NCBI GenBank assembly: GCA_964477545.1
Contig: CAYZEJ010000001.1
Coordinates: forward strand, 11-64,010
Direction: 5' to 3'
DNA: 64,000 bases
DNA from: an uncultured Anaerolineaceae bacterium
GTDB lineage: Bacteria > Chloroflexota > Limnocylindria > Limnocylindrales > CSP1-4
The first letter of the stretch is position 1. Every line of letters begins with the position of its first letter. A program made the translations under genes and the position numbers. Shown one piece after another: positions 18,034 to 44,571 of this stretch. A model generated the notes under the pieces. The model worked only from the letters and a program-made list of their open reading frames with translations, had not been told where the DNA came from and did not search any database.

Positions 18034-18048
18034 GCAGGCGCCGGAATC

Positions 18049-19035: not shown

Positions 19036-19065
19036 AAACTGGCGCAGCAGCATTACTCTCAGGCA

Positions 19066-19079
19066 GCAACTCTTGTTGC
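19066..19079. promoter_or_regulatory. Inverted-repeat motif GCAACTCTTGTTGC (site 3) plus half-site CGCAACGATTG at 19093-19103
   Basis: Exact GCAAC-N4-GTTGC upstream of tctC. Confidence 0.5.
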
Positions 19080-19141
19080 AGGCTCGTATGATCGCAACGA
19101 TTGCGGCCGCGAGGTCGCGCAAGCGAGGAGGTCCTGTCCCG

Positions 19142-20221: not shown

Positions 20222-20261
20222 CGTTACGGCCTGAGGCTGTTCGGGGCGCGGGAAGAGCCGC

Positions 20262-22282: not shown

Positions 22283-22752
22283 GTCGCTACGGCACGCCGA
22301 ATAGCGTCCACCTGCGACTGCCAGCGCGCCACGGCGCGCTCGGTGTTGGCCAGCTCGATGGTCGGGCCGCTGCTCAGGCGCGCGTAGCTGACTTCGTCGC
22401 GGACGGTGCTCTCCACCGTGGCCGAGAAGAGAGCCAGCTTGCTGCCGCCAAGGTCATCGGCGAGCGGACGCGCGGCGAGTCTCAGCCGATAGGCCGCACC
22501 GTGTAGGTAGATCTGGAGAACCGCGCGTCCCGACCGTTGCAGGTTGTCTGTGGTCGTGCTCGCCGGCCAGAGGGCCAGCCCGACCGAATGCTCGTCGAGG
22601 GCGACCACCTCGCCCACGCTCAGCAGGGCGACATGCGGCCAGCCCGACGGCGCAACCGTTACGAGCTCGAAGACGAGCGACGCCCGGGCGGCAAGGTCTT
22701 CTCCGTCGAGCACCTGCCGGATCTCGTCGGGCAATCCTGGTGGGTCTTTCAT
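22279..22752 (-). CDS. Pyridoxamine 5'-phosphate oxidase-like FMN/F420-binding protein
   Basis: 157 aa from MKDPPGL. Split-barrel-like sequence. Start chosen at the internal ATG because the region upstream holds a regulatory motif. Confidence 0.45.
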   Translation of the reverse strand: MKDPPGLPDEIRQVLDGEDLAARASLVFELVTVAPSGWPHVALLSVGEVVALDEHSVGLALWPASTTTDNLQRSGRAVLQIYLHGAAYRLRLAARPLADDLGGSKLALFSATVESTVRDEVSYARLSSGPTIELANTERAVARWQSQVDAIRRAVAT

Positions 22753-22781
22753 CGCTGGATGACTCCATGGCCTGGTGTGAT

Positions 22782-22795
22782 GCAATCGTGGTTGC
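22782..22795. promoter_or_regulatory. Inverted-repeat motif GCAATCGTGGTTGC (site 4, one mismatch)
   Basis: Lies in the divergent region between the PNPOx-like gene and the 13-gene CoA operon. Confidence 0.4.
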
Positions 22796-22829
22796 AGCGA
22801 GCCTAGGTGGGTGAAACAATCGATGTCAA

Positions 22830-23996
22830 ATGTTCCTGGCGCCGACGGCCGACGAACGACTCCTGCGCGATTCCGTCGGCGCGATCTGCGCACAATTCGC
22901 CGATGACTATTGGCGGCAGGCCGACGCTGCACGGGAGTACCCAAGCGAATTCGTCGACGCGCTGACAGCGGCCGGCTGGCTAGCGATGCTCGTGCCCGAG
23001 GAGCACGGCGGTGCCGGCCTCGGCATCAGCGAGGCAGCCATCGTCCTCGAGGAGATCAATCGGTCCGGTGGCAACTCCGCCGCCTGTCACGCCCAGATGT
23101 ACATCCTCGCCGCGCTCGTCCGCCACGGCACGGACGAGCAGCGCCGACGGTACCTGCCGGAGATCGCCGCCGGGCGGCTCAGGCTGCAGGCATTTGGCGT
23201 GACCGAACCGTCCGCCGGGTCGGAGACGACTCGTATCCAGACGTTCGCGCGGCGCGTCGGCAATCACTATGTCGTAAACGGCCAGAAGATCTGGGCATCG
23301 CGCGCGGCGCACTCCGACCTGATGCTGCTACTGGCGCGCACCACGCCCTACGAGGAGCTGACCGACAAGACGCGAGGCCTTTCACTCTTCATCGTCGACC
23401 TTCGCACCGCCGTCGCCGCGGGCCGAGTGACGATCCGGCCGATTGACACGATGCTGAACCACTCGACGACCGAAGTCTTCATCAACGACCTCGAGGTCCC
23501 CGCCGACGACCTGGTGGGCGAGGAGGGGTTGGGCTTCCGCTACATCCTCGACGGCTGGAACGCCGAGCGCATCCTGATCGCAGCCGAGTGCGTCGGCGAT
23601 GGGCGCTGGTTCGTAGAGCACTCGGCGGCCTACGCGCGCGAGCGGGTGGTCTTCGGGAGGCCGATTGGACAGAACCAGGGCGTGCAGTTTCCGATCGCCC
23701 GCGCCTATGCCGCGGTCGTGGCAGCCGACCTCGTGCGCCGCCGCGCCGCGGAGCTGTACGACGCCGGCGAGAGGTGCGGCCCGGAGGCGAACATGGCCAA
23801 GTACCTCGCTGCCGAGGCCAGCTGGGAGGCGGCCAACGTGTGCCTCGACGTGCATGGCGGGTTCGGCTTCGCACGCGAGTACCACGTCGAGCGCAAGTTC
23901 AGAGAGACGCGGCTGTACCGTGTGGCGCCGATCAGCCAGAACCTCGTCCTCGCCTATCTCGGACAGCACGTGCTGAACCTGCCGCGCTCCTACTGA
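22830..23996 (+). CDS. Acyl-CoA dehydrogenase
   Basis: ACAD N-terminal, middle and C-terminal domains. Confidence 0.9.
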   Translation: MFLAPTADERLLRDSVGAICAQFADDYWRQADAAREYPSEFVDALTAAGWLAMLVPEEHGGAGLGISEAAIVLEEINRSGGNSAACHAQMYILAALVRHGTDEQRRRYLPEIAAGRLRLQAFGVTEPSAGSETTRIQTFARRVGNHYVVNGQKIWASRAAHSDLMLLLARTTPYEELTDKTRGLSLFIVDLRTAVAAGRVTIRPIDTMLNHSTTEVFINDLEVPADDLVGEEGLGFRYILDGWNAERILIAAECVGDGRWFVEHSAAYARERVVFGRPIGQNQGVQFPIARAYAAVVAADLVRRRAAELYDAGERCGPEANMAKYLAAEASWEAANVCLDVHGGFGFAREYHVERKFRETRLYRVAPISQNLVLAYLGQHVLNLPRSY

Positions 23997-25132
23997 TGCC
24001 TGGTCCGCCTCTGGCCGGTCTGCGCGTCGTTGCCGTCGAGCAAGCGGTCGCCGCGCCGCTGTGCACCCGCCACCTTGCCGACCTCGGCGCAGACGTGGTC
24101 AAGGTCGAGCGACCAGGTGGGGGAGACTTCGCCCGCCATTATGACGGAGTGGTGCTGGGCCAGTCGGCGTACTTCGTCTGGCTCAACCACGGCAAGCGCA
24201 GCGTCACGCTCGATCTCGGTCGCGATGACGAACGGGCCGCGCTGGAGCGACTGCTCGACCGCGCCGACATTTTCGTCCACAACCTGGCGCCGGGCGCCGC
24301 CGACCGGCTGGGTATTGACCATCGCTCCGTCCGCGCCCATCGGCCGACTCTCGTCTCGTGCGCGATCAGCGGCTACGGCCCGGGCGGACCCTACAGCGAT
24401 CGCAAGGGGTTTGACCTGCTGCTGCAGGGCGAGAGCGGCCTGATGTCGGTCACCGGCACGCCCGAGGCGCCGGCCAAGGTGGGCATATCCGTCGCCGACC
24501 TGTGCGCCGGGATGTACGCACTTTCGGCCGTGCTCGCCGCCCTACATCGCCGGGAACGCGCGGGCGGCGGCGCGACCATCGACATCAGCCTGCTCGACTG
24601 CCTCGCCGAGTGGATGAGCGTGCCCTCACTGCAGCTGCGTTACGGCGGCAAGGCGCCGGCGAGGGTCGGCGCGCGACACGCCTCGATTGTGCCGTACGGG
24701 CCGTACCGCACCGCCGACGGAATGGTCAACCTGGCCGTCCAGAACGAGAGCCAGTGGCGCCGCTTCTGCGCCACGGTGCTGCGGCGGCCGGCGCTGGGTG
24801 ACGACCCTGAACTCGCCGGTAACGAGCGGCGCGTGCGCGATCGCGCGCGTTTAGAGGAGTTGATCGATGAGTGCCTGGCCGACGTCACGACGACCGAGGT
24901 GGAGCGGCGGCTGGCTGCCGCCGACGTGCCATGCGGGGCGCTGAACGACGTGCAGGGGTTGCTCGACCATCGCCAGCTCGCGGCGCGCGATCGCTGGTGG
25001 GATGTTGCCTCGCCGGCGGGGCCTGTGCGCAGCGTGCGACCACCCTTCAACATCGACGGCATGGCCGCCCATGCAGGTCGTGTGCCTGACCTCGGCGAGC
25101 ACACCGCCGAGGTGCTGGAGGAGATCGCATGA
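23996..25132 (+). CDS. Family III CoA-transferase (CaiB/BaiF/Frc-like)
   Basis: MPGPPLAGLRVVAVEQAVAAPLCTRHLADLGADVVKVE N-terminus. TGATG overlap with the ACAD gene. Confidence 0.85.
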   Translation: MPGPPLAGLRVVAVEQAVAAPLCTRHLADLGADVVKVERPGGGDFARHYDGVVLGQSAYFVWLNHGKRSVTLDLGRDDERAALERLLDRADIFVHNLAPGAADRLGIDHRSVRAHRPTLVSCAISGYGPGGPYSDRKGFDLLLQGESGLMSVTGTPEAPAKVGISVADLCAGMYALSAVLAALHRRERAGGGATIDISLLDCLAEWMSVPSLQLRYGGKAPARVGARHASIVPYGPYRTADGMVNLAVQNESQWRRFCATVLRRPALGDDPELAGNERRVRDRARLEELIDECLADVTTTEVERRLAAADVPCGALNDVQGLLDHRQLAARDRWWDVASPAGPVRSVRPPFNIDGMAAHAGRVPDLGEHTAEVLEEIA

Positions 25133-25677
25133 GCGAGGCGCGGCCGAACTCGGGGCCGACTGATGGTCAGGCATCGGTCAGCGGTGGCCGCTGCCTGGAG
25201 GACTTCGAGGTTGGCGCGGTCTACCGGCATCCACTCGGCCGCACGATCAGCGCGGTCGACAACAGCTGGTTCACGCAGCTCACTCTCAACACCAACCCAC
25301 TCCACTTCGACAGGCACTATGCGGCTCAGACCCGCTTCGGGCGACCCCTAGTGAACTCGACGCTGACACTCGCCCTGGTGACGGGCCTATCGGTACGGGA
25401 TGTGAGCCAGAACGCCATCGCCAATCTGGGCTGGGACGAGGTGCGCCTGCTCAAGCCGGTGTTCGAGGGAGACACGCTGTATGGCCAGAGCGAGGTGCTC
25501 GCGGCGAGACCGTCGCGCACCCGCCCCGACGCCGGGCTGGTCAGCGTCCGCACCACGGGCTACAACCAGGATGGCGAGGTGGTCATCACCTTCCGCCGCG
25601 AGATGATGGTCTACCGTCGCGGTTACGTGCCGCAGCCGCCGGCGCCGAGAGAGGAGCCGTCGGAAGAAGTGAAATGA
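25129..25677 (+). CDS. MaoC-like (R)-specific enoyl-CoA hydratase/dehydratase
   Basis: Hot-dog fold (NPLHFD). Overlaps neighbours on both sides. Confidence 0.8.
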   Translation: MSEARPNSGPTDGQASVSGGRCLEDFEVGAVYRHPLGRTISAVDNSWFTQLTLNTNPLHFDRHYAAQTRFGRPLVNSTLTLALVTGLSVRDVSQNAIANLGWDEVRLLKPVFEGDTLYGQSEVLAARPSRTRPDAGLVSVRTTGYNQDGEVVITFRREMMVYRRGYVPQPPAPREEPSEEVK

Positions 25678-26825
25678 ACGGTATCGCTGCTGTTTCCGCT
25701 CGAACTGGTTGGCTGTGGGCGCAGCCGGTCATCCTAAGCGTGCCGGCGACCGACAGTCTGCTTGTCGGAAAGGCGGTAGAGCGGCGAAACGACGCCCTGG
25801 CCAGGCTGCTCGAACGCGCGTTCGTCACGCCGGGCGACGTTGCCGTGCGCCTAGAGATCGGGCGCGACAAGGTCGACACGATGCTGCGTGCTGCCCGCCC
25901 GACGCCGGCGGTCATGCTGGACGGCGAGGATGCCGCCCGGGGCACGCCAGAGGAGGTCGCCCACGCGGTCGCCGTCGCATTGCTTGATTCCGCATGGCAG
26001 ACGGGCACGCTGCGCCTGGTGCGCCTGGCCGCGGGCACGACCGGTTCGCACCAGCTCGAGGTGATCGCGCGTCAGTTGGCCGGCGCGGGAGCAAGTGCTG
26101 CGCCCCACAGCGTCGTCCTGCCGAAGGTTACTCACCCGGCATACGTGCGCGCCGCGATCGGTACGCTCGAGCGTTTTGAGGACGCGGTCGGAATCCCGCG
26201 AGAGCATGTTGGCATCCATCTGCTGATCGAGAATGCGGCCGGCATGGCAGCCATCAACGAGCTGGCACACGCGGCAGGATCGCGTCTTGCCGGTATGTTG
26301 TTCGGCGCGCTTGATTACGCTGCCGACATCGGCCTGCCCGATCCGGCCGATCACGCCGGCGCCAGTGCGTCCTGGGCGCGCATGCAGGTGGCCAACGCAG
26401 CGGCGGCCGCCGGGGTTCCGGCGCTTGACGGCATGACCACGGCATTCCCGCCGCGGCCTGGGACGGGCAAGGATCTCGCAGATGGACTGCTGACCGCTAT
26501 TGAGGTCACCTATCGAGACACGCTGCGCGCCGCCAGCCAGGGCATGTCGGGCAAGTTGGTAGGTCATCCGGCGCAACTGCTGGCCGCGCTGCTCGCATTT
26601 GACGAAACCTATTCGCCGCAAGCGCAGCAGCGCTGGCGGAGCGTCATCGCGGCATACCAGGCCAACACGAAGGGGGGCGCCATGACGCACGAGGGACAGA
26701 TGATCGACCAGGCGTCGGTGCACCACGCACGAATGATGCTCGAGCGAGCACGCGCGGGCGGCTTTGTTCAGGCCGCGATGGTGCGCGACGAAAGGAGTTC
26801 GATCGCGGCAGGGTCAGCACAGTGA
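25674..26825 (+). CDS. HpcH/HpaI aldolase / citrate-lyase beta (CitE)-like acyl-CoA lyase
   Basis: CitE-like core (MLDGEDA...ENAAG...DYAADIG). Confidence 0.7.
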   Translation: MNGIAAVSARTGWLWAQPVILSVPATDSLLVGKAVERRNDALARLLERAFVTPGDVAVRLEIGRDKVDTMLRAARPTPAVMLDGEDAARGTPEEVAHAVAVALLDSAWQTGTLRLVRLAAGTTGSHQLEVIARQLAGAGASAAPHSVVLPKVTHPAYVRAAIGTLERFEDAVGIPREHVGIHLLIENAAGMAAINELAHAAGSRLAGMLFGALDYAADIGLPDPADHAGASASWARMQVANAAAAAGVPALDGMTTAFPPRPGTGKDLADGLLTAIEVTYRDTLRAASQGMSGKLVGHPAQLLAALLAFDETYSPQAQQRWRSVIAAYQANTKGGAMTHEGQMIDQASVHHARMMLERARAGGFVQAAMVRDERSSIAAGSAQ

Positions 26826-28267
26826 CCGTCGCCGCGACCGCAGCCCGGCCTATATTCGTGGGGGGCCGCTGGGAAACCGGCGAGGACCTGCTCGAGGTGG
26901 CCAACCCGGCACGGGCGGACGAGCTAGCCGGGACAACCTACCAGGCCAGCGCAGACCAGCTCGAGCGTGCGATCGTGGCTGCTGAAGCGGCGTTCGCCGA
27001 GACGCGCCGCTCGCCCGCGTACGAGCGTGGCGCCCTGCTGCGGCGCATCAGCGCGGGAGTGCTCGCGCGACGCGACGAGCTCGCGCGCCTGCTGGCCCTT
27101 GAGATTGGCAAGCCCATTCGCGACTCGGTCATCGAGGCGGAGCGCACGGCCCTGGCTTTCCGCATCGCCGGCGAGGAAGCCGAGCGACTGCACGGCGAGC
27201 TCATCCCACTTGACCTGAACGCGGCTTCGCGCGGGCGTGTCGGCGTGACCCGACGCTTCCCTATCGGTCCGATAGCGGCGATCAGCCCGTTCAACCTGCC
27301 GCTCGGGCTGGCCGTCCACAAGCTGGCACCAGCGATGGCCGTAGGCGCACCGATCGTGCTCAAGGTGCCGTCGCGCGCGCCGCTGGCGCTGCTGGCACTG
27401 GCCGAGGTCATCGAAGCGGCTGGCGCGCCGGCTGGTTCGGTCAGCATCATGCCCATGAGCCGCAGCGTGGGCGACCGGATGATCAGCGACGAGCGGTTCA
27501 AGCTCCTCACCTTCACCGGCAGTCCCGCGGTCGGCTGGGACATGAAGGCACGTGCCGGCAAGAAGAAGGTCGTGCTCGAGCTGGGCGGCAACGCCGCGGC
27601 GATCGTCGACGCGTCAGCCGACATTGAATGGGCAGTAACCCGCTGCCTGACAGGCGCGTTCAAGTTCGCTGGCCAGCTGTGCGTGAGCGTCCAGCGCCTG
27701 CTGCTTCACGACGACATCGCCGACGACTTCCTCGCGCGCTTCGGCGAGCGCGCCGCGAAGCTGCGCATGGGCGACCCGCTCGATCCGGCGACCGAGCTCG
27801 GGCCGGTCATCGACCGAGACGTCGTCGAGCGGACGCAGGGCTGGATCGAAGAGGCCGTGTCGCTGGGAGGGCGTGTGCTGATGGGCGGGGAGCCTCATGG
27901 TCAGTTCTTCCCGCCGACCCTTCTTGCCGACGTGCCCGCCCAAGCGCAGATCTGCACCGAGGAGGCTTTCGCGCCGGTGGCCGTCGTCAGTCGGTTTGCG
28001 ACCTTCGAAGAGGCGATCGAGCGTGTCAACGAGTCCCGTTTCGGACTGCAGGCTGGCGTGTTTACGAGTGGGCTGGCCAATGCCTGGCGCGCCTTTGACG
28101 AACTCGAGGTCGGCGGGGTGATGATCAACGACATCCCCGGCTATCGCATCGACCACATGCCGTTCGGTGGCGTGAAGGAGTCCGGACTGGGGCGCGAGGG
28201 GCTGCGCTGGGCGATGGAGGATATGACCGAGCTCCGGCTGATGGTCGTGGCGCCCGTCGGAGGCTGA
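26822..28267 (+). CDS. NAD(P)-dependent aldehyde dehydrogenase
   Basis: ALDH superfamily with catalytic Cys (FAGQLCVSVQR) and Glu (LELGGN) motifs. Confidence 0.9.
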   Translation: MTVAATAARPIFVGGRWETGEDLLEVANPARADELAGTTYQASADQLERAIVAAEAAFAETRRSPAYERGALLRRISAGVLARRDELARLLALEIGKPIRDSVIEAERTALAFRIAGEEAERLHGELIPLDLNAASRGRVGVTRRFPIGPIAAISPFNLPLGLAVHKLAPAMAVGAPIVLKVPSRAPLALLALAEVIEAAGAPAGSVSIMPMSRSVGDRMISDERFKLLTFTGSPAVGWDMKARAGKKKVVLELGGNAAAIVDASADIEWAVTRCLTGAFKFAGQLCVSVQRLLLHDDIADDFLARFGERAAKLRMGDPLDPATELGPVIDRDVVERTQGWIEEAVSLGGRVLMGGEPHGQFFPPTLLADVPAQAQICTEEAFAPVAVVSRFATFEEAIERVNESRFGLQAGVFTSGLANAWRAFDELEVGGVMINDIPGYRIDHMPFGGVKESGLGREGLRWAMEDMTELRLMVVAPVGG

Positions 28268-28389
28268 GAGGAGGTCAGCTCGGCGACAGTGGCAACAACG
28301 AGTGTTCCAATCACGGGGCACCCGTGCTATGTTTCGTTGCATCGTTGGCGAGGGCGCGAGCCACTCGGACAAGGGGAGTTGGAGCGGAC

Positions 28390-30159
28390 ATGCGAGTTGT
28401 CGACGCTGTTGCGGAGTGGTTCGAGACAGTTGGGCTGACGCACTACTTCGGCTACGCGGGGGGCGCCATTTGGCCGCTGCTCGACGCCTTCGTCGACAAG
28501 CCCAACATACGCGGCATCCAAGCCAAGAACGAGGGTCATGCGGTGCACATGGCCGACGTTTACTACCGCATTACCGGCAGCATCGCGCCGGTGCTGGTGA
28601 GCAAGGGTCCCGGTCTGCTGAACACCGTTGGCGCGACGGCCAGTGCGATGCACGACAGCTCGGCGGCGCTGATCCTGGCCGGCTCGGGCTCGACTCACTT
28701 CCTCGGCCGTGCCGGGATGCAGGAGATGTTCTACCGCGGCTTTGAGAGCGCCGTCGATGTGTTCCGGCCGATCACCAAGGGCGCTTGGCTGGTCGTGCGC
28801 CCCGACCAGGTGATCGACGTTCTGAACGCTGCGCTCAAGGGGGCTACCAGCGGTCGACCGGGCCCGGTCTTCGTGCAGATCCCGTATGACATCCAGCTTG
28901 CAGAGGTAGAGGGCGAGGTCGAGCACATCGGGCGGCGCAGCGCGCTGCCGGGCATGCGCGCTGCGCCGGAAAACATCGAGCGTGTCGTCGCCCTGCTCGA
29001 GCAGGCCGAACGGCCGATGCTGCTGGCGGGCGGCGGCGTGGCTCGCTCACGCGCAGCCGACAAGCTGTGCACCACCGCGGAGAGACTCGGCGTGCCGGTC
29101 GTCACCACACTGCCCGCCAAAGGCATCTTGCCCGAGGATCATGCGCTGTCGCTCGGGCCAGTGGGGCGCTCGGGTACTAATGCCGCCGCACGCGCGACGC
29201 GCGAGGCGGACCTTGTAATTGCGGTCGGCGCACGCTTCTCGGACAACCACACGGGGAACTGGCGCGAGGGCATGATCTACGACGTGCCACGTACCAAGAT
29301 CGTGCAGGTCGATGTCGACCCCGCCGAGGTCGGGCGCAACTATCCGGTCGAAGTGGGCCTTCTGTCCGACGCCGGAGCCTTCCTTGACGACCTTCGCAAT
29401 GCCGTAGGCGACGGTAGCCCAGCGCGCCACGCGGGCTGGGCCAAGTCCGTGGAGGGCTACCGCGACGACTGGCGAGCTGAGATCGAGGAGGTCATCAAGC
29501 ACGCCGGCTCGCCAATTCACCCGGGCCGGCTGTGCTACGAGGTAGGCGAGGCACTGCCCGCCAACGGCCACGTGCTGATCGACGTGGGCGACGTGATTCA
29601 GTATGCCGAGCCGTACATGACCATCCGCCGCCCCGGCTCGTGGCACATCAACTCGGGCATGGCCGAGATGGGTTGGGCGACACAGGGCGGCCCCGGCGCT
29701 GTGATTGCGGATCCCGGCAGCATCGCCGTCGTGCTGACCGGTGATGGTGCGTTCCTGATGGGGCCCCAGATCGTCGCCACCGCGGTCGAGTACGGCCTGC
29801 CGGTGGTCTGGGTGATCCTGAACAACAATGAGCTGGGCATTGAGCGCAAGGGCGCAACGGCGGCATTGGGCCGTCCTCACCCGTGGTACTCGTTTACCCG
29901 TCACGATACCGGCGAGCCGTACAACCCCGACTTCGCTGCCGCCGCACAGGCGTACGGAGCCGGGGGCGAGCGCGTCGAGAACGCGGATGACTTCCGCCCG
30001 GCGCTCGAGCGAGCGATCGACAGCGGCCGCCCGTACGTCCTCGACGTGCCCATCGATGTCTCAGTCCCGACGTTTTTCGTCAAGGGTCTCGATCGCGCCT
30101 ACCCCAACAAGTGGGCTCAGAGCTATCCCGGCTACGGGCTGCTGAGGAACAAGCAATGA
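28390..30159 (+). CDS. Thiamine-diphosphate-dependent enzyme (acetolactate synthase / oxalyl-CoA decarboxylase / 2-hydroxyacyl-CoA lyase family)
   Basis: TPP-binding GDGAFLM motif and three-domain architecture. RBS AGGGGAG upstream of ATG 28390. Confidence 0.85.
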   Translation: MRVVDAVAEWFETVGLTHYFGYAGGAIWPLLDAFVDKPNIRGIQAKNEGHAVHMADVYYRITGSIAPVLVSKGPGLLNTVGATASAMHDSSAALILAGSGSTHFLGRAGMQEMFYRGFESAVDVFRPITKGAWLVVRPDQVIDVLNAALKGATSGRPGPVFVQIPYDIQLAEVEGEVEHIGRRSALPGMRAAPENIERVVALLEQAERPMLLAGGGVARSRAADKLCTTAERLGVPVVTTLPAKGILPEDHALSLGPVGRSGTNAAARATREADLVIAVGARFSDNHTGNWREGMIYDVPRTKIVQVDVDPAEVGRNYPVEVGLLSDAGAFLDDLRNAVGDGSPARHAGWAKSVEGYRDDWRAEIEEVIKHAGSPIHPGRLCYEVGEALPANGHVLIDVGDVIQYAEPYMTIRRPGSWHINSGMAEMGWATQGGPGAVIADPGSIAVVLTGDGAFLMGPQIVATAVEYGLPVVWVILNNNELGIERKGATAALGRPHPWYSFTRHDTGEPYNPDFAAAAQAYGAGGERVENADDFRPALERAIDSGRPYVLDVPIDVSVPTFFVKGLDRAYPNKWAQSYPGYGLLRNKQ

Positions 30160-31055
30160 ACGCACAGTCGACCGAAGTCAACGCCGACGCGGATGTCATT
30201 TCGGCACTGCGCCACAGCTACGACGAGCTGACGCGCTCGCAGAAGCGAATCGCCGAGGCGATCGTCGACGATCCCGAGTTCGTTGCCTTCGCAACCGTCG
30301 ACAAGATGGCCAGCCGGCTGGGTGTCAGCCCATCGACCGTGGTGCGCTTCACGTATCGATTAGGGCTCAACGGCTACCAGGATCTGCAGGAACGCGTTCG
30401 GTTGCTGGTCCGGTCACAGATGCGTTCGGCCGCGGGCGATGGTGATGAAGCCCAGGTTATCGCCCACCTCGGCGATACCGCCTTCGCACGATCGTTCGAG
30501 CGCGACCTGGACCATCTCCGCCGGACGATCGCTGGGCTCGACCGCGACGCGCTCGAACGTGCCGTCGAGCTGCTGGTTGCCGGCAGGCGTGTGCTGGTGA
30601 CCGCGGACGCGACGGCCCGCAGCGTTGCGTATTTCACGATGCTCGCGCTCGATCGCATGCGTGGCGCGACCGACCTTGTACGTGCCGACGGTGACAGCGT
30701 GGGCCGGCTGGTAGACATCTCACCGGAAGACGTCGTACTGGCCTTCACCTTCCCACCCTATGCCTCGAGCGTCCTTCGGATGGTCCGCTGGGCACACGAG
30801 CGGCGAGCCCGCATCATCGCCGTGACCGACTCGCCGATCTCGCCCGTCGGCCAGCTGGTGGATGTCGTGTTGCCTGCTCTGTCGTCCGGCATCGGAGCCC
30901 ACAACACGCTGGTTCCGGCGTTGGCGATTGCCAACGCACTGACTAACGCCTTCGCCGTGCACGAGCGCGCAACCGCCCTCGACCGCTACGGCACCGCTAA
31001 CCAGTTGATGGAGCAGTGGGACCACTACGTGCTGAAGTCCGGCGATGAGCGATGA
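30156..31055 (+). CDS. RpiR-family transcriptional regulator (HTH + SIS domain)
   Basis: HTH rpiR-type N-terminus and SIS domain. ATGA overlap with the TPP enzyme. Its 3' end overlaps the next gene by 11 nt. Confidence 0.75.
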   Translation: MNAQSTEVNADADVISALRHSYDELTRSQKRIAEAIVDDPEFVAFATVDKMASRLGVSPSTVVRFTYRLGLNGYQDLQERVRLLVRSQMRSAAGDGDEAQVIAHLGDTAFARSFERDLDHLRRTIAGLDRDALERAVELLVAGRRVLVTADATARSVAYFTMLALDRMRGATDLVRADGDSVGRLVDISPEDVVLAFTFPPYASSVLRMVRWAHERRARIIAVTDSPISPVGQLVDVVLPALSSGIGAHNTLVPALAIANALTNAFAVHERATALDRYGTANQLMEQWDHYVLKSGDER

Positions 31056-32277
31056 GCCAAACGCCCTCGCTGGCCTCCGCGTAATCGACGCCAGCGGTGA
31101 GCTGGCGGCGTATGCAGCACGGTTGCTGGGGGACCTGGGGGCCGAGGTTATCCGGGTGGAGCCACCCACCGGATCGCCCGTCCGCATCCGGTCGCCGCTC
31201 GTTAGCGAGCCACACGGGCGTGGCACCAGTGCCTTCGACCTGTTCGTAAATGCGGGCAAGCTCTCGGTCACGCTCGACCTCGGCCATGCCGATGGCCGGT
31301 CGCTGCTCGTGCGCCTGGCCGAGCAGGCCGACATCCTGCTCGAGACATTCGAGCCGGAGTGGGCCGACGCAGTGGGTCTCTCGCCCTCCGAGTTGCGGCG
31401 CGTCAATCCGCGCCTCATCCACGTCTCGGTCACGCCTTATGGGCGATCGTTGAGTGCCGCGGCGAACGACGACGATCTGACCATCCTGGCCGCTGGCGGA
31501 CTGCTTCACCTCGGCGGCTATCGCGATGCCGAGCCGGTCGCCGCGTATGGCGGCCAGAGTCGCTTCGCCGCATCTCTCTTTGCGACTACGGCGGCGTTGA
31601 TCGGTGTGCTCGACCGCGAGCGTACCGGTCAGGGCTGCTGGGTCGATGTCTCGGCGCAAGAGTGCGTGGCGCAGGCGCTCGAGGACTCGGTGGCTACATA
31701 CGACCTCACCGGTGAGGTGCGCGAGCGGCTGGGGTCCGAGCCACGCGAGGCGGGCAGCGGCATCTATCGCTGCGCCGACGGCTACGTGGCCATGATGGCC
31801 GGTCGGCTGGGCACCGCTAAGGCCTGGCAGTCACTCATCGATTGGCTGGTAAAGGAGGAGGTCGACGGAGCGACCGAGCTGCAGGATCCGTGGTGGTCGC
31901 AGCTGCCCAATCGGCAGAGCGACCGCGGCATCAGCCGCTTCGGCGAGATCTTCGGCCGATTTACCGCAGGTCGGCCGCGCGCCGACCTGTATGCGGAGGC
32001 GCAGCGGCGCGGCATCGCACTGTCGCCGGTCAACGACGTGGCGGCAGTACTGGCCGACGCCCAGCTCGCGGCGCGCGGGTTCTGGGTCCTGGTCGACGAT
32101 CCGCAGGCGGGCCGCACCATGACCTATCCCGGGCCGCCATACCGCCTGTCGGCGACGCCGCCCCGGGCAGCGCGGCCCGCGCCCCGCCCGGGGGAGCACA
32201 ACGTGGCCGTGCTCCGCGATCGGCTGGGTCTTACCAGCGAACAGTACGAGCAACTGCTGGAGGCGGGGGTGGTATGA
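31045..32277 (+). CDS. Family III CoA-transferase subunit (BbsE/SptA-like)
   Basis: CaiB/BaiF family. First of two adjacent CoA-transferase genes. Confidence 0.85.
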   Translation: MSDEPNALAGLRVIDASGELAAYAARLLGDLGAEVIRVEPPTGSPVRIRSPLVSEPHGRGTSAFDLFVNAGKLSVTLDLGHADGRSLLVRLAEQADILLETFEPEWADAVGLSPSELRRVNPRLIHVSVTPYGRSLSAAANDDDLTILAAGGLLHLGGYRDAEPVAAYGGQSRFAASLFATTAALIGVLDRERTGQGCWVDVSAQECVAQALEDSVATYDLTGEVRERLGSEPREAGSGIYRCADGYVAMMAGRLGTAKAWQSLIDWLVKEEVDGATELQDPWWSQLPNRQSDRGISRFGEIFGRFTAGRPRADLYAEAQRRGIALSPVNDVAAVLADAQLAARGFWVLVDDPQAGRTMTYPGPPYRLSATPPRAARPAPRPGEHNVAVLRDRLGLTSEQYEQLLEAGVV

Positions 32278-33497
32278 GCCAGCGCTCCGTCTTCCTGAGC
32301 GAGCTTCGCGTGCTCGACTTCGCGTGGGTGGGCGCCGGCGCGTTGGTGACCAAGCTCCTGGCGGATATGGGCGCCGAGGTGATCAAAGTCGAGTCGCGCG
32401 CCCGGCCGGACAACCTGCGCATGGCGCCGCCCTACCGGCCGGGCGGCGAGGGGCTTGAGGGATCGGGATACTTTGCCTCACGCAACACGAACAAGAAGAG
32501 CTTCGCTCTCGACATGCGGCAACCGGAGGCGCGCGAGATCGCCCTCGCCTTGGCCGAGCGCTGCTCGATCGTCACCAGCAATTTCCGGCCCGGCGTGATG
32601 GAGCGCTGGGGTCTCGCCTACAGCGACATTCGGGAGCGCAACCCATCGGTCATTTACCTGACGATGCCGATGCAGGGCTCTGACGGCCCCCACGCCGCCT
32701 ACACCGGCTTTGGCTCAACCATTGCCGCGCTGTCTGGCCTCGTTCACCTTTCGGGGCGTCCTGACCGTCCTCCCGTCGGCACCGGCACTCACTACCCGGA
32801 CCACGTGCCCAGCCCCGGGCATGCGCTCGTCGCACTGCTCGCCGCTCTGCGCCATCGGGAACGAAGCGGCGAGGGCCAGGCGATCGAGGTTGCCCAGTTG
32901 GAATCAACCGTCAACGTCGTTGGCCAGGCGTTCCTCGATGATGGCCAGACCGAAGGCACGCGCGACCGCAGCGGCAACCGACTTCCCGGCGCCAGCCCGC
33001 GCGGCGTTTTCCCGTGCGCAGGGCCTGAGAGCTGGGTGGCGATCGCCTGCTTGACGGAGAGCAACTGGCGCAACCTGTGCGACGTGCTGGGTCGGCGGGA
33101 ATGGGCCAATGACGGACGGTTTGCCACGCTGCTCGCCCGCAAGGCGAACGAAGACGAGCTGGAGGCCCTGCTGGCGATCGAGACGCGTGTCCAGCAACGC
33201 GCCGAGCTGGTCGCCTCGCTCCGTGCCTGCAACGTGCCGGCGTCTCCGGTGAACAGCAGCCGCGATGTGCTCGGCGACGACGCCCTCGCGGCACGGGAGT
33301 ATTGGCAGCGCGTCAGCCATCCCGTGATTGGGGAGATGGCGATTGCTCGGCCGCCGTTCCGCATCGATGACTGGTCACGGCCCGACCTTGGCCGCGCGCC
33401 GCTGCTCGGCGAACACACGCGCCAGATCGCGAGTGAGCTGTTGGCGATGGACGACGCCGCGATCGACAGGCTCATTGAAGCCGGGGTTCTGGCGTGA
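32274..33497 (+). CDS. Family III CoA-transferase subunit (BbsF/SptB-like)
   Basis: MSQRSVFLSELRVLDFAWVGAGALVTKLLADMGAEVIKVES N-terminus. ATGA overlap with the previous gene. The track ORF has an N-terminal shadow extension. Confidence 0.85.
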   Translation: MSQRSVFLSELRVLDFAWVGAGALVTKLLADMGAEVIKVESRARPDNLRMAPPYRPGGEGLEGSGYFASRNTNKKSFALDMRQPEAREIALALAERCSIVTSNFRPGVMERWGLAYSDIRERNPSVIYLTMPMQGSDGPHAAYTGFGSTIAALSGLVHLSGRPDRPPVGTGTHYPDHVPSPGHALVALLAALRHRERSGEGQAIEVAQLESTVNVVGQAFLDDGQTEGTRDRSGNRLPGASPRGVFPCAGPESWVAIACLTESNWRNLCDVLGRREWANDGRFATLLARKANEDELEALLAIETRVQQRAELVASLRACNVPASPVNSSRDVLGDDALAAREYWQRVSHPVIGEMAIARPPFRIDDWSRPDLGRAPLLGEHTRQIASELLAMDDAAIDRLIEAGVLA

Positions 33498-34276
33498 CGG
33501 CGGACGCCGGAGGCGGTCTGCTGGTCGAGCGCAACGGGCACGTTCTCTGGCTGACATTCAACCGACCTGAGCGGCGCAACGCCATCGATCGCGCCATGCG
33601 CATCGCGTTCGGCACAGCCTGCGCGGAAGCCGACTCCGACGACGAGGTGCGCGTAGTCGTGCTGACAGGAGCGGGCGAGGCATTCTGTGCTGGGACCGAT
33701 CTCAAGGAGGCGCCGCGCGCCGATCCACCGCACCCGCTGGCCGATCGCACGGAGCCGATCGCGGCACCCATCGAGCGGCTAACCAAGCCGGTCATTGCCG
33801 CCATCAATGGGCCAGCGGCGGGCGGCGGGCTGGAAGTCGCGCTGGCTGCTGACCTGCGCATCTGCTCGACAACCGCGATGTTCGCCCTGCCCGAGGTGCG
33901 CGTCGGGAGCCTGCCCGGTAGCGGCGGCACACAGCGGCTCATCGCTTCCATCGCCCCCGCGGTCGCGTGGAAGATGCTGCTGACCGGTGATCCGATTGAC
34001 GCCGAAGAGGCGCTGCGCGTGGGCCTGGTCAGCGACGTGGTCCCGCGCGAAAAGCTGCCTGCGCTGGCCCAGGCACTCGCCGAGCGCGTGGCCGCCAATG
34101 CGCCACTGTCGGTGCGTGCGGCCAAGGTCGCCGGTCGGGCCGCAACGGAGCATCCCATAGCCAGCGGGCTGGCGCTCGAGCGGATGCTGTGGGCGCTGCT
34201 CGCGACCACTGAGGACCGCACGGAGGGCCGCGCCGCGTTTCGAGAGCGGCGCAAGCCCGACTACAAGGGACGGTAG
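33494..34276 (+). CDS. Enoyl-CoA hydratase/isomerase (crotonase)
   Basis: Crotonase fold with catalytic region (CAGTDLKE). Confidence 0.9.
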   Translation: MTADAGGGLLVERNGHVLWLTFNRPERRNAIDRAMRIAFGTACAEADSDDEVRVVVLTGAGEAFCAGTDLKEAPRADPPHPLADRTEPIAAPIERLTKPVIAAINGPAAGGGLEVALAADLRICSTTAMFALPEVRVGSLPGSGGTQRLIASIAPAVAWKMLLTGDPIDAEEALRVGLVSDVVPREKLPALAQALAERVAANAPLSVRAAKVAGRAATEHPIASGLALERMLWALLATTEDRTEGRAAFRERRKPDYKGR

Positions 34277-34286
34277 ACCCCGGCCG

Positions 34287-35426
34287 ATGGCATGGCGCAG
34301 GGCCGCGATCGTTGGCGTGGGTGTCAGCCGGCTGGGCAGGCTGCCTGGTGAGACGCCGCTCAGCCTCGCCGCCGAGGCCGTCCGCGACGCGTTGGCGGAC
34401 TCGGGCCTCGAGAAGGACGAGATCGACGGACTGCTCACCATGCCCGGCACGACCTCTCCCGATGGCGCGAAGCACTACCTGGCGTTGGGCGAGCGCCTGG
34501 GCATCAACCCGCACCTGACAGGGTCGCTGTACATGGGCGGCGCCACGGCCGGCGCGCTCATCCAGCAGGCGGCGCTGGCGGTCGACGCCGGGATGGCGAG
34601 CGTCGTTCTGTGCGTGTTCGGGGATACCGCGCGGAGCGGCGGCAATCGCTTCGACTCGGCCGCCGGTGCTGGTGATTCGTGGGGCATCTGGGGCATGTTC
34701 GGCAACGCCGCGAACAGCGCGTTCGGGGCACGGCGCCACATGGAGCTCTATGGCACCACCAGCGAGCAGCTCGGCTGGGTTGCAGTCACATGTCGACGGC
34801 ACGCTCGGCTCAATCCGCAGGCGACCATGCAGGAGGCCATGACGATCGGGGACCACCAGGCGTCGCGCATGATCGTCGAGCCGCTCCACCTGCTCGATTG
34901 CTGCGTCATCAGCGACGGAGCGGTTGCGATACTTGTCGCTAGTCCCGAACGCGCGGCCGACACTCGAAAGCCGTCGGTGATGCTGTGGGGCATGGGCCAG
35001 GGTCATACGCTCCAGAATCTCGAGGCCCCTGAGTGGTGGTACGTGCCCCACCAGGCTGACGCGCTCAGCCGAACCTACCGCATGGCCGGTGTGCGCCCGT
35101 CGGATATCGACCTCGCACAGCTCTACGACAACTTCACCATCTCGGTCCTGTTCTGGCTGGAGCACGCCGGCTTCGTCGGCCGCGGCGAGTCAGGACCCTT
35201 CGTCGAGGGTGGTACGCGCATCACGCTCGGCGGCGAGCTGCCCGTCAACACGGCGGGCGGCAACCTCTCAGAGGCGTACATGCAGGGCTGGCTGCACATC
35301 GTCGAGGGCGTGCGTCAGATCCGGGGCGAGGCCGGCCCTCGCCAAGTCGAGGGCGCCGAGCTGTGCCTTGTCACCGGTCGCGGCATGATCCTCAACACCG
35401 CGAGCGCGCTGATCCTGGGGAAGTGA
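34287..35426 (+). CDS. Thiolase-like protein, SCP-x / BbsB type (paralog 2)
   Basis: Thiolase fold. Immediately followed by a DUF35 gene. Confidence 0.85.
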   Translation: MAWRRAAIVGVGVSRLGRLPGETPLSLAAEAVRDALADSGLEKDEIDGLLTMPGTTSPDGAKHYLALGERLGINPHLTGSLYMGGATAGALIQQAALAVDAGMASVVLCVFGDTARSGGNRFDSAAGAGDSWGIWGMFGNAANSAFGARRHMELYGTTSEQLGWVAVTCRRHARLNPQATMQEAMTIGDHQASRMIVEPLHLLDCCVISDGAVAILVASPERAADTRKPSVMLWGMGQGHTLQNLEAPEWWYVPHQADALSRTYRMAGVRPSDIDLAQLYDNFTISVLFWLEHAGFVGRGESGPFVEGGTRITLGGELPVNTAGGNLSEAYMQGWLHIVEGVRQIRGEAGPRQVEGAELCLVTGRGMILNTASALILGK

Positions 35427-35427
35427 A

Positions 35428-35859
35428 GTGAGCGCTGGGGTCAAGCCGATCCTGCCCACGATCAGCGACCTGAACAGGTCGTTCTGGGAGGGTTGCGCCG
35501 CGGGCGAGCTGCGCATGCAGGGGTGCGTCCGGTGCGGACATGTGCGCTACCCGATCGCGCCGATCTGTCCGCGCTGCCTATCGCCCGACGACGAGTGGCG
35601 TCGCTTGTCGGGTCGAGGCGAGATCCTGTCGTGGGTCTATTTCCGGCGTTCGTACAACGCGGCATGGGAGCACCGGCTCCCATACAACGTCATCCTCGTG
35701 CAGCTCGAGGAGGGGCCGCGGATGTTCTCCAACGCCGTGCCGCTTGGGCGCGATGACCTGCACGTGGGCATGGCGGTTGGGGTCGAGTTCGTCGAAGAAG
35801 ACGGCGTGACGCTCCCACGCTTCAGGCCGCACGCTCATTTCGGGTCCCCCAAGCCTTGA
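35428..35859 (+). CDS. DUF35 OB-fold/zinc-ribbon protein (thiolase partner)
   Basis: CVRCGHVRYPIAPICPRC ribbon followed by an OB fold. Confidence 0.8.
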   Translation: MSAGVKPILPTISDLNRSFWEGCAAGELRMQGCVRCGHVRYPIAPICPRCLSPDDEWRRLSGRGEILSWVYFRRSYNAAWEHRLPYNVILVQLEEGPRMFSNAVPLGRDDLHVGMAVGVEFVEEDGVTLPRFRPHAHFGSPKP

Positions 35860-35880
35860 CCTGCAACGGATGTTGCGACC

Positions 35881-36114
35881 GTGGTCTTCCGCGGCGGCAC
35901 AACCTCTGGCTGCGTCCGGGCATCCGTGGTCGACGCCTACTCGGCTGGCTTTCAGCCTGTCGTGGCCGAGGAGGCAACGTTCGATCGCGCTCTCTCGCCG
36001 CATCTCGCGAACTTGTTCGACATCCACGCCAAGTACGGCCAAGTCATGCTGACCGCCGACATCGTTGCCCAGCTCACGCCCGAAGCCGACCGAGTGCCGA
36101 TCGGCACAGCCTAG
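35881..36114 (+). pseudogene. C-terminal remnant (~77 aa) of an isochorismatase-family hydrolase
   Basis: Matches only the region from the catalytic-Cys segment ([15 protein letters not shown]) to the C-terminus. An in-frame stop lies immediately upstream, so the N-terminal ~110 aa are absent. Confidence 0.45.
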
Positions 36115-36165: not shown

Positions 36166-37344
36166 CTACGCTGCGGGAGTCGCCGCCGAGGCTTCGCCGT
36201 CGACGAAGGCCAGCTTCTGGTAGCGCTGACGAGTCCGGTTGGTGTCGAACCACCGCATGAACGCGATGAGCATTGCCTTGGCGACGTCCTGGTTGCGGTC
36301 GCCGGTGGGCTGTCCGTAGAGGTCGGTGCGCATCAGGCCGCGCAGGACCGCGACCTCCGAGTCCGACAACTCCATGTCGATCGGGCGCCGCCTCGGGAAG
36401 GGGCGGAACTCGGGCTTGTAGGACGGGTCCGGGCGCAGCTCGCGCTCCGCCAGAATCTCCTTGACTTTGAAGTCGGCCCACGTCTTCTGCATCTTGAGCC
36501 CGCCCCATTGCTGGTTGACGAGCTCGACCAGCTCGCTCGTGTGCTCGGTCTTATCGTGGACGGCGATCAGAACGGGCTGCGGGTCGAAGTTATTGATCGG
36601 GTGAACCTCGGCCGGGCAGGACACCGGGACGGCAAGCATGTCCATCGTCGCCACCAGGTCGACGTAGTCACCCTTTACCGACCGGCCGTGGCCGAAGTTA
36701 CGCCGGCCGGTCGCGTCCATGATCGACTTCATCCAGAAGTTGTACGAGGTGTGGACGTCGTCAGCGGTCAGCCGGTACTCGCGGATCGCCTCGGTAAACG
36801 CGTCCTCGCAGCTGGCGTGATCGACGAGCCCGTACTCCTTCTCGTACAGCACGCCGTTACAGCGGTTGCCGGCGTAGTACTGGTCGCAGGACTCGGAGGC
36901 GTCGCGGATGACGAAGATCGGCCGGCCGTGCGGTGAGTTGGTGAATACGACCGTGCCCGGGCCCGTCACGAATCCGCGCTGCCGGTTGAAGCCGCAGTCG
37001 AGGTACTCCTTGTAGTCGTGCAGGTTGTAGGCGTTGAAATCGATGCACTGGCCGCCCACCAGTTGCGACATGCGCAGCACTTCACCCTTGTATACGGGGA
37101 TCGCCTTGCCTTCCCCGGGCTGGAGGACGATGTCGTACCGTTGCGGTCCGTACGCGGGGCGCTTGGCCTCGACCTGCGTCCACGGCGCCGGGTCGTCAGT
37201 CCCGCCGCCAGCCAGGATGTACGCGGCATGGTCGAGGGCGACCGCGCGTAGCACGTCAACCCTTTCTTTGCCGTAGGTGCCTGTGGCGACGACCTCATCG
37301 AGCAGCTGCAGCTGTGTTTCCAAAAATGGGACGCTTACTTTCAT
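36166..37344 (-). CDS. DUF1989 domain protein (urea-carboxylase-associated family fold) with N- and C-terminal extensions
   Basis: Conserved blocks VGGQCIDFNAYNLHDY and GDYVDLVATMDMLAVPVSCP recall DUF1989. 392 aa is longer than typical family members. Confidence 0.6.
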   Translation of the reverse strand: MKVSVPFLETQLQLLDEVVATGTYGKERVDVLRAVALDHAAYILAGGGTDDPAPWTQVEAKRPAYGPQRYDIVLQPGEGKAIPVYKGEVLRMSQLVGGQCIDFNAYNLHDYKEYLDCGFNRQRGFVTGPGTVVFTNSPHGRPIFVIRDASESCDQYYAGNRCNGVLYEKEYGLVDHASCEDAFTEAIREYRLTADDVHTSYNFWMKSIMDATGRRNFGHGRSVKGDYVDLVATMDMLAVPVSCPAEVHPINNFDPQPVLIAVHDKTEHTSELVELVNQQWGGLKMQKTWADFKVKEILAERELRPDPSYKPEFRPFPRRRPIDMELSDSEVAVLRGLMRTDLYGQPTGDRNQDVAKAMLIAFMRWFDTNRTRQRYQKLAFVDGEASAATPAA

Positions 37345-37413
37345 CGGTACTCCCTCGCATTACTTGACGTGACCACTGGGGGCACGCGATCGGGTGGCCC
37401 GCGGACCACCGCC

Positions 37414-44568: not shown

Positions 44569-44571
44569 CGG

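Follow-up and report, generated by a model that had tools for sequence, protein, structure and literature searches.

The question raised by this locus is what kind of pathway is encoded by twelve consecutive plus-strand genes at 22830-35859 of the window, the 64,000-nt stretch of contig CAYZEJ010000001.1 analysed here (G+C content of about 67%, about 8% non-coding). The first-pass annotation had described them as a thirteen-gene, coenzyme A (CoA)-dependent operon with a core resembling benzylsuccinate beta-oxidation (Bbs) and a C2/C5-acid-like front end. The answer that we tentatively favour, with somewhat less than even confidence, is a catabolic operon, or two abutting units split at 28268-28389, in which an imported branched polycarboxylate would be processed through activation, hydration and retro-aldol cleavage of its CoA ester and not through beta-oxidation. 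The features of the row were as follows.

22830-23996, plus strand: acyl-CoA dehydrogenase (ACAD), 388 amino acids (aa), with all three Pfam ACAD domains
23996-25132, plus strand: family III CoA-transferase CoAT1, 378 aa, homodimeric dicarboxylate type (Pfam CoA_transf_3, E 9e-113)
25129-25677, plus strand: MaoC-type (R)-hydratase, 182 aa, itaconyl-/mesaconyl-CoA hydratase-like (Pfam MaoC_dehydratas and MC_hydratase)
25674-26825, plus strand: rare CitE/malyl-CoA-lyase-like acyl-CoA lyase, 383 aa (Pfam HpcH_HpaI and DUF6986)
26822-28267, plus strand: NAD(P)-dependent aldehyde dehydrogenase (ALDH), 481 aa (Pfam Aldedh, E 6e-139)
28268-28389, plus strand: gap of 122 nt between ALDH and the following TPP enzyme, the only sizeable intergenic gap, with a hairpin at 28312-28326 and a Shine-Dalgarno-like GGAG before the next start
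28390-30159, plus strand: thiamine diphosphate (ThDP)-dependent enzyme, 589 aa, acetolactate-synthase/carboligase class (three Pfam TPP domains)
30156-31055, plus strand: RpiR-family regulator, overlapping both neighbouring genes (Pfam HTH_6, E 1.9e-14; SIS, E 6.3e-11)
31045-32277, plus strand: CoA-transferase CoAT2, best match benzylsuccinate CoA-transferase chain A
32274-33497, plus strand: CoA-transferase CoAT3, best match benzylsuccinate CoA-transferase chain B
33494-34276, plus strand: crotonase-type enoyl-CoA hydratase (ECH), 260 aa (Pfam ECH_1, E 1e-61)
34287-35426, plus strand: SCP2-thiolase-fold, Ltp2-like presumed retro-aldolase, 379 aa, lacking the thiolase cysteines (best PDB match 6OK1_A)
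35428-35859, plus strand: stand-alone DUF35 protein with zinc ribbon and OB domain, presumed aldolase partner (Pfam zf-ChsH2 and OB_ChsH2_C)

The order given earlier, namely ACAD, CoAT1, MaoC, HpcH/CitE-like lyase, Aldedh, TPP enzyme, RpiR, CoAT2, CoAT3, ECH, Thiolase_C_1 (SCP2 type) and DUF35, was confirmed, and each domain label was backed by Pfam. The number thirteen had to be corrected to 12, which is what both the earlier gene list itself and the sequence contain. The sole candidate for a thirteenth gene was a 69-codon C-terminal isochorismatase fragment at 35878-36084 (Pfam E 8.5e-9). The slot directly 3' of the operon, where this fragment lies, is occupied by a luciferase-like oxidoreductase gene in the related loci L002, L171 and L173. 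A thirteenth gene is found in the relative L002, where a class II aldolase is located between ALDH and the TPP enzyme.

Junctions were computed after homology-based correction of the gene starts; for the TPP enzyme the ATG used by homologues, whose proteins begin with MRVVDAV, was taken. Genes overlapped by 1, 4 or 11 nt at eight of the 11 junctions: TGATG at ACAD/CoAT1, ATGA at CoAT1/MaoC, MaoC/lyase, TPP/RpiR and CoAT2/CoAT3, GTGA at lyase/ALDH and CoAT3/ECH, and 11 nt at RpiR/CoAT2. Two short gaps were found at ECH/Ltp2-like (10 nt) and Ltp2-like/DUF35 (1 nt). The row is tightly packed. The 122-nt ALDH/TPP gap had gone unmentioned; it may be an internal boundary or a promoter. In relatives the same junction holds the class II aldolase (L002), an opposite-strand gene (L173) or a palindrome (L128, L130), and the ALDH/TPP gap is a recurrent seam. 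A promoter scan returned no promoters, and terminator-like sites were not above shuffled sequence (8 against 5.4±2.7 expected). Rfam and tRNA scans of the window gave no matches. No NCBIfam equivalog model reached its cut-off for any of the proteins (0 of 12). No characterised pathway matches the gene set, although all of the enzyme families are already known.

The evidence for retro-aldol cleavage lies at the 3' end of the row. The protein formerly labelled SCP-x thiolase was most similar to TcLtp2 (6OK1_A, E 9e-67), and it scored 92.9 bits with the BbsB model, for which the cut-off is 750. It carries a glycine (MGGATAG) in place of the nucleophilic cysteine, and both thiolase cysteines are gone. 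TcLtp2 is a steroid side-chain retro-aldolase that was crystallised with a DUF35 domain, and two of its tyrosines are reported to be catalytic, the second being Tyr344; the motif of the first reads HDCF in SCP2 thiolases, YDHF in Ltp2 (the His forming the oxyanion hole) and YDCY in Sal (PMC12329534). The protein of the window has YDNF at residue 280 (Y280), with Asn for the His of YDHF, and LYDNFT was present in 106 of 120 homologues. The second tyrosine is kept as well (SEAY at 328; E[S/A]Y in the family). Judged by these residues, the "SCP-x thiolase" is no thiolase. The DUF35 protein that follows has a four-cysteine zinc ribbon (C33-x2-C36-x10-C47-x2-C50) and gave no match to the BbsA model at 1e-10. 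Pfam detected no 3-hydroxyacyl-CoA dehydrogenase of either the short-chain dehydrogenase/reductase (SDR) or the HADH type among the operon genes; the nearest SDR is encoded at 10438-11175 on the minus strand, in a separate operon. Because such a dehydrogenase is lacking and the SCP2 fold is of the aldolase type, an enoyl-CoA would be hydrated and then split by retro-aldol cleavage. The Ltp2-like/DUF35 complex is predicted to cleave a 3-hydroxyacyl-CoA to a carbonyl compound and an acyl-CoA, the latter possibly succinyl-CoA, by which the CoA donor would be regenerated.

The likeness to the Ltp2-ChsH2 and Sal-Shy systems includes glycine for cysteine, the tyrosine of YD.F together with a second tyrosine, the C4 zinc-ribbon DUF35 and a hydratase acting upstream. 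The window's system differs from both in its YDNF motif, in a DUF35 that is separate and unfused to a MaoC hydratase, and in having a crotonase as partner hydratase; it has no steroid genes, and its substrate is presumably a small polycarboxylyl-CoA. To our knowledge, DUF35 aldolases of the Ltp2/Sal type have been known only from steroid side-chain cleavage. Should the prediction hold, they would enter general organic-acid catabolism, and thousands of proteins annotated as "thiolase" or "acetyl-CoA acetyltransferase" would gain another function: an E-value of 1e-40 or lower was reached by 4296 homologues of the SCP2-fold protein, the best 120 listed being 72-91% identical to it.

These residues bear directly on the earlier thiolytic Bbs logic, in which CoA transfer, dehydrogenation, hydration, oxidation and thiolysis by thiolase and DUF35 would follow one another as in benzylsuccinate degradation. 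Such a beta-oxidation is now very improbable. Shared with the Bbs pathway are a two-subunit transferase, ACAD, crotonase, an SCP2-fold protein with a stand-alone DUF35 and, likely, a succinyl-CoA donor cycle. The differences are that neither a BbsCD-type dehydrogenase nor the thiolase cysteines are present in the operon, that the predicted retro-aldol product is an aldehyde or ketone, and that the operon further encodes a ThDP enzyme, ALDH, RpiR and a MaoC/CitE block. The carriers belong to soil lineages of Actinomycetota, Chloroflexota and Proteobacteria, lack a benzylsuccinate synthase close by, and appear to come mostly from soil and other non-hydrocarbon settings. What could still speak for beta-oxidation is a separate minus-strand set 10 kb upstream with a palindrome at its promoter. 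This set (9778-12819) encodes an SCP2-type protein that retains the nucleophilic cysteine (292.7 bits with the BbsB model), a BbsA-like DUF35, the SDR and a UbiX. Two SCP2-type sets, one thiolytic and one aldolase-type, thus share the island. In the related loci L087 and L089 the core occurs without such an SDR/thiolase set.

The analogy to BbsEF that had been drawn for the adjacent CoA-transferases was supported at the level of homology, since each top-matches a different subunit of 9FN0. CoAT2 matched 9FN0_A with 254 bits (next match 129) and CoAT3 matched 9FN0_B with 310 bits (next match 179). Alignment with orthologues showed that the Asp of CoAT1 (GFD) and of CoAT2-type proteins (D-L) is replaced by Gly in every CoAT3-type protein (GFGST), a motif kept in three CoAT3 orthologues, including those of L002 and L087. 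We take the aligned Asp to be the catalytic nucleophile of family III CoA-transferases; on that assumption, Asp in CoAT2 and Gly in CoAT3 suggest a heteromer with a single active subunit. The crotonase had its top PDB matches in 3-hydroxypropionyl-CoA dehydratase and PaaF. In the route that we favour, the CoAT2/CoAT3 heteromer would activate a 2-substituted succinate-type acid with succinyl-CoA as the CoA donor, and the crotonase would hydrate the resulting 2-alkylidene acyl-CoA. If so, heteromeric CoA-transferases of the BbsEF type extend beyond anaerobic hydrocarbon degraders.

The likely nature of the acid could be approached through the genes next to the operon, which are listed below.

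19073-20221, plus strand: tctC (Pfam TctC)
20262-21770, plus strand: tctA (Pfam TctA)
21767-22282, plus strand: tctB-like membrane open reading frame
22279-22752, minus strand: small conserved protein of 157 aa, divergent from the operon, without Pfam match

The first three genes (19073-22282) encode a tripartite tricarboxylate transporter (TctCAB), the presumed uptake system, and the branched di- or tricarboxylic acid would be imported at least partly by it. A TctC/TctA pair also adjoins the cluster in L002, with 49% and 67% identity. Loci of proteobacteria and actinobacteria (L138, L170, L087 and L173) have genes for MmgE/PrpD, PrpF and TctC alongside the core, and the PrpD-like protein of the window is closest, weakly, to cis-aconitate decarboxylases. 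TctCAB, the PrpD/PrpF/TctC companions and the BbsEF-like transferase together point to a succinate-derived branched di- or tricarboxylate as the most likely substrate class. Several specific acids were considered, namely trans- and cis-aconitate, itaconate, methylsuccinate, tricarballylate, 4-substituted 2-oxoglutarates, 4-oxalomesaconate and nicotinate-derived acids; none of them explains all genes. Organosulfonate chemistry was dropped as well, since the matches of ALDH to SafD, of the ThDP enzyme to Xsc and of ACAD to 3-sulfinopropionyl-CoA desulfinase were at about half of the cut-offs or lower and the hints in its direction (SsuA-like binding proteins and luciferase-like proteins) were outweighed by the polycarboxylate signals of TctCAB, PrpD and PrpF.

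A different substrate is suggested by the company that the core keeps in Mycolicibacterium litorale (L087). There, a 16-gene overlapping operon encodes a protein like a substrate-binding protein (SBP), an MFS transporter, TPP enzyme, ALDH, RpiR, two CoA-transferases, ECH, the Ltp2-like protein and DUF35, followed by UbiD, an F420-type luciferase-like monooxygenase (LLM), a PrpD/IRG1-like protein, a 158-aa protein, UbiX and a second SBP-like protein. The 157-aa protein divergent from the window's operon is 40% identical to the 158-aa protein. SptAB/PCD of anaerobic phthalate degradation, in which a succinyl-CoA:phthalate CoA-transferase acts with a UbiD-type phthaloyl-CoA decarboxylase, resembles this arrangement, since UbiD and UbiX share one operon with a heteromeric family III transferase in M. 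litorale. An aromatic, heteroaromatic or conjugated polycarboxylate could accordingly be converted to a CoA ester by the BbsEF/SptAB-like transferase, decarboxylated by a prenylated-FMN-dependent UbiD matured by UbiX, hydrated and cleaved, with the ThDP enzyme and ALDH acting on ring-opening products. Presence was counted over 31 related metagenome loci, each at least 12 kb long; the UbiD, UbiX, F420-dependent LLM and PrpD/IRG1-like genes that follow DUF35 in M. litorale were seen again in 7-9 of them (UbiD 8, UbiX 8, F420-LLM 9, PrpD-like 7). Homologues of these companions also lie elsewhere in the window, several of them by a palindrome, with UbiD at 15148-16683 and UbiX at 9778-10401, both on the minus strand. 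The top matches of UbiD are phenolic-acid-type decarboxylases, and a molybdenum cofactor (Moco) hydroxylase operon flanks the row. Nevertheless, we regard this UbiD-coupled route as decidedly unlikely. UbiD and UbiX lie outside this operon and are missing from the majority of core loci, no ring-reducing or ring-opening enzyme was identified, and MmgE/PrpD, PrpF and TctC indicate aliphatic tricarboxylates. The window also differs from SptAB/PCD in that its transferase is followed by a hydratase and an aldolase.

The distribution of the genes showed that the operon consists of three separable modules, ACAD-CoAT1, MaoC-lyase and an eight-gene core (ALDH and TPP enzyme, RpiR, two CoA-transferases, crotonase, SCP2-thiolase-like protein and DUF35), which have come together in the window and a few related loci. 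All of the genes are found again in the metagenome contig L002, in a metagenome-assembled genome (MAG) of Chloroflexota (L028) and in a Thermomicrobiales MAG (L061). L002 has the gene order of the window apart from its additional aldolase, L028 has the last five genes inverted and placed upstream of ACAD, and L061 reads lyase-MaoC-CoAT2-CoAT3-ACAD-CoAT1-ALDH-TPP-RpiR. Since the content recurs in loci of differing gene order, the arrangement goes beyond chance. The proteins other than the lyase are 58-80% identical between these three loci and the window (60-80% in L002 and L061), but the lyase only 35-41%. In L173, ACAD-CoAT1 is attached to the core without MaoC and lyase. The core itself was found in M. 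litorale, a Solirubrobacteraceae MAG, a Variovorax plasmid and many soil contigs. Its genes were present in the 31 long loci as follows: CoAT2 in 25, CoAT3 in 28, ECH in 29, DUF35 in 29, TPP in 16, RpiR in 15 and ALDH in 11. ACAD, CoAT1, MaoC and the lyase were each found in none of them. The row seen by the first-pass annotation is real; its make-up as a fusion of separable modules had been overlooked; the shuffling of ACAD-CoAT1, MaoC-lyase and core is a clear illustration of how catabolic operons are assembled.

This mosaic structure is also what two or three independent units standing side by side, perhaps co-transcribed, would look like, with a C5-dicarboxylate route (itaconate, methylsuccinate or mesaconate) next to an unrelated core. 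The absence of all four front genes from the long core loci, the occurrence of ACAD-CoAT1 with the core in a locus that has neither lyase nor MaoC (L173) and the recurrently broken ALDH/TPP junction all agree with it. So does the usual setting of lyase and MaoC in Chloroflexota, where these genes mostly occur without the rest of the operon and with genes for a lipoyl protein, an E2 domain and a protein of about 495 aa. No counterpart of the latter protein or of the E2/lipoyl genes was present within the window. We nonetheless consider independent units unlikely, because the blocks stand together in four or more loci (window, L002, L028 and L061) that show three gene orders, which would be difficult to account for if they had no functional link, and because those of the window are translationally coupled up to ALDH, itself a core gene.

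For the front block, the C5-acid-like character proposed earlier held up. The best NCBIfam match of the MaoC protein was the itaconyl-CoA hydratase RipB/Ich (190.4 bits against a cut-off of 340), and the lyase reached 73.6 bits with the RipC_Ccl model (cut-off 375). ACAD had its top NCBIfam matches, below cut-off, in short-chain or dicarboxylyl types, and its PDB matches were generic. CoAT1, which has the Asp of GFD at the presumed catalytic position, matched 4ED9, a formyl-CoA transferase entry (10UH), YfdE and SUGCT best in the PDB. An AlphaFold2 model of the lyase (pLDDT 84.9) could be superposed on human CLYBL, malyl-CoA lyase, citramalyl-CoA lyase and M. tuberculosis CitE at 16-25% identity, with Foldseek probability 1.00 to 5VXC, 4L9Z, 8KHL and 6AQ4 and TM scores of at most 0.81 on the target. 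LDGEDA (D83/E85/D86), R117, E186 and D214 were invariant in the alignment; we take the acidic residues, which are typical of the family, to be presumed metal ligands and R117 to be the presumed substrate Arg. The modelled fold and these conserved residues fit the CitE/malyl-CoA lyase superfamily. Related context was seen in a Halothiobacillaceae MAG (L078), where a lyase of the same family stands beside a 360-aa double-MaoC protein resembling mesaconyl-CoA hydratase (Mch) and near a 542-aa ACAD that is extended at its N-terminus in the manner of methylsuccinyl-CoA dehydrogenase (Mcd).

The lyase is of a rare kind: in an exhaustive profile search, 106 cluster representatives among 1.84 billion reached an E-value of 1e-30 or lower. 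The identical protein was found elsewhere, besides the source record, only on one 2.9-kb Logan contig. A single-sequence scan of species-representative genome contigs gave no match. A profile scan of species-representative genomes recovered relatives of at most 44% identity, nearly all in Chloroflexota MAGs, and nearly every one of them stood beside a MaoC homologue 56-68% identical to that of the window. In the front block, CoAT1 would activate a dicarboxylate of C4/C5 type, ACAD would desaturate the product, the Ich-like MaoC protein would hydrate it, and the CitE-like lyase would cleave it to an acyl-CoA and glyoxylate, pyruvate or another 2-oxo-acid. These steps would parallel the Mcd/Mch/Mcl and Ict/Ich/Ccl pathways. 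The likeness to Ict/Ich/Ccl (RipABC) and to Mcd-Mch-Mcl1 consists in a CoA-transferase, a MaoC-type hydratase and a CitE-fold lyase, with ACAD in front. The window differs in that its MaoC protein and lyase are well under the equivalog cut-offs of Ict/Ich/Ccl (190 against 340 and 74 against 375), in that its lyase is of a rare subfamily that carries DUF6986 and is extended at the N-terminus by about 75 aa, and in that an unrelated core of eight genes is joined to the module.

The ThDP enzyme and ALDH are the second pair that has to be accounted for. The earlier reading of the TPP enzyme as an oxalyl-CoA decarboxylase (Oxc) or 2-hydroxyacyl-CoA lyase (HACL) was not sustained: those proteins were matched with 137-155 bits, compared with 270 bits for BbmA, the best PDB match, about 210 for plant acetohydroxyacid synthase and about 197 for glyoxylate carboligase, and no Oxc model was among the 25 best NCBIfam matches. 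The top NCBIfam matches of ALDH, all below cut-off, were lactaldehyde, sulfoacetaldehyde, succinate semialdehyde and phosphonoacetaldehyde dehydrogenases. The two genes are adjacent across loci in either order, which would fit consecutive steps, most simply from a 2-oxo-acid to an aldehyde and on to an acid. Most likely, the ThDP enzyme would decarboxylate a 2-oxo-acid to an anionic aldehyde, which ALDH would oxidise to a carboxylate. Such a ThDP decarboxylase/ALDH pair is formed in cyanobacteria by 2-oxoglutarate decarboxylase and succinic semialdehyde dehydrogenase. The window resembles that pair in that an acetolactate-synthase-like ThDP enzyme adjoins an ALDH whose top model matches are enzymes for small anionic aldehydes. 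It is a likeness and not a demonstrated orthology, and in L106 and L112 ALDH is exchanged for an F420-type LLM.

The nearest solved relatives of the ThDP enzyme bear names in the style of natural-product genes (BbmA and CsmA), and both aldolases and CoA-transferases are reversible. One could therefore think of a biosynthetic cluster in which a ThDP carboligase and an aldolase condense units toward a branched acid natural product. Uptake transporters (tripartite tricarboxylate, MFS and ABC) surround the cluster in every lineage, tailoring, export and resistance genes are missing, and the metabolic block is conserved across many soil taxa; biosynthesis is thus extremely improbable. A literature search on BbmA/CsmA, DUF6986, the PDB codes and the gene combination of the cluster found nothing. 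Decayed duplicates occur at 50810-52238 of the window, where an N-terminal fragment of an ALDH, about 165 aa long and sharing 50% identity with the operon ALDH, abuts two pieces of one UbiD-family gene (51355-51648 and 51645-52238).

The RpiR gene in the middle of the row had been thought unusual for acyl-CoA pathways. It turned out to be a constant member of the core, found in the same position in 15 of the 31 long loci, including Mycolicibacterium, and in L002, L087, L089, L171 and L173. Among the open reading frames annotated in the window, no other transcription factor was found. Comparison of intergenic regions uncovered a palindrome, TGCAAC-N4-GTTGCA, with 9 sites in the window at up to 2 mismatches against 1.59±1.27 expected; none of 100 shuffles reached 9. 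All of the sites lie in or straddle non-coding DNA at gene boundaries.

22781-22796: palindrome TGCAATCGTGGTTGCA, candidate operator, 34 nt upstream of the ACAD start
35862-35877: palindrome copy TGCAACGGATGTTGCG, 3 nt past the DUF35 stop
19065-19080: palindrome at the tctC start
12788-12803: palindrome in the promoter of the minus-strand SDR/thiolase/DUF35/UbiX set
41727-41742: palindrome between the 36166-41731 (minus-strand) and 41714-47021 gene sets
47336-47351, 48676-48691, 53287-53302 and 63466-63481: further palindromes at gene boundaries

Six of the sites precede other transporter/enzyme operons between 12.8 and 63.5 kb. Homologous operons have the palindrome, at one or two mismatches, in their promoter regions as well (198-213 in M. 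litorale L087 and 1191-1206 in L097), and it stands directly upstream of the TPP gene in L128 (3514) and L130 (3566). Its presence at nine boundaries and upstream of homologous operons makes these genes a candidate RpiR regulon. The embedded RpiR is probably the pathway regulator, binding TGCAAC-N4-GTTGCA at the operon promoter and at the eight other boundaries, and a regulon spanning about 50 kb is a reasonable reading of the sequence. RpiR and palindrome offer a testable regulator-operator pair, for which M. litorale is a cultured carrier.

The retro-aldol reading can be extended further, to a version that is doubtful. The core would then be an undescribed, widespread, aerobic "aldolytic" counterpart of Bbs, with one catalytically dead transferase subunit, that acts on alkylidene- or hydroxyalkyl-succinates of the itaconate and aconitate class by succinyl-CoA loading, hydration and splitting to an aldehyde and succinyl-CoA; the CoA cycle would run without dehydrogenase or thiolase, and the island of about 50 kb would be one RpiR regulon. 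If the retro-aldol reading as such holds, an acid pathway common in soil bacteria (Mycolicibacterium, Solirubrobacterales, Chloroflexota and Variovorax) is defined.

Several points weigh against activation, hydration and retro-aldol cleavage in a single operon as the explanation of this locus. As none of the proteins reached an equivalog cut-off, the activities are extrapolated from family level. The motif of the Ltp2-like subfamily is YDNF and not YDHF, and aldolase activity is presumed from homology. The ThDP enzyme may be a decarboxylase, a carboligase or a C-C hydrolase. The core would have to start from an acyl-CoA that is unsaturated or hydroxylated, but in most core loci there is no ACAD gene in the vicinity. 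The frequent UbiD/UbiX, F420-dependent LLM and PrpD/IRG1-like companions have no place in the proposed scheme. The 122-nt gap, together with the gene inserted there in L173, argues against obligatory co-transcription. Finally, the divergence of the lyase, at 35-41% identity next to neighbours of 58-80%, may reflect fast evolution or replacement by a paralogue.

Further genes of the window resemble those of the M. litorale operon or carry the palindrome at their borders. Homologues of nearly all M. litorale accessory genes are scattered over the window at 40-58% identity, among them UbiX (9778-10401), UbiD (15148-16683) and the homologue of the 158-aa protein (22279-22752). Others are located in the region 60061-63462, the scattered set including SBP-like, PrpD/IRG1-like and F420-dependent LLM genes. 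A luciferase-like oxidoreductase is paired with an SsuA/NMT1-like paralogue of periplasmic-binding fold three times, at 16945-19035, 48771-50820 and 60061-63462; no adjoining permease was noted for the three SsuA/NMT1-like genes. Convergent to the operon, a minus-strand set at 36166-41731 encodes a DUF1989 protein and a Moco/FAD/2Fe-2S enzyme of the xanthine dehydrogenase family. Divergent from this set, a RidA-like gene and a branched-chain-type ABC transporter are found at 41714-47021.

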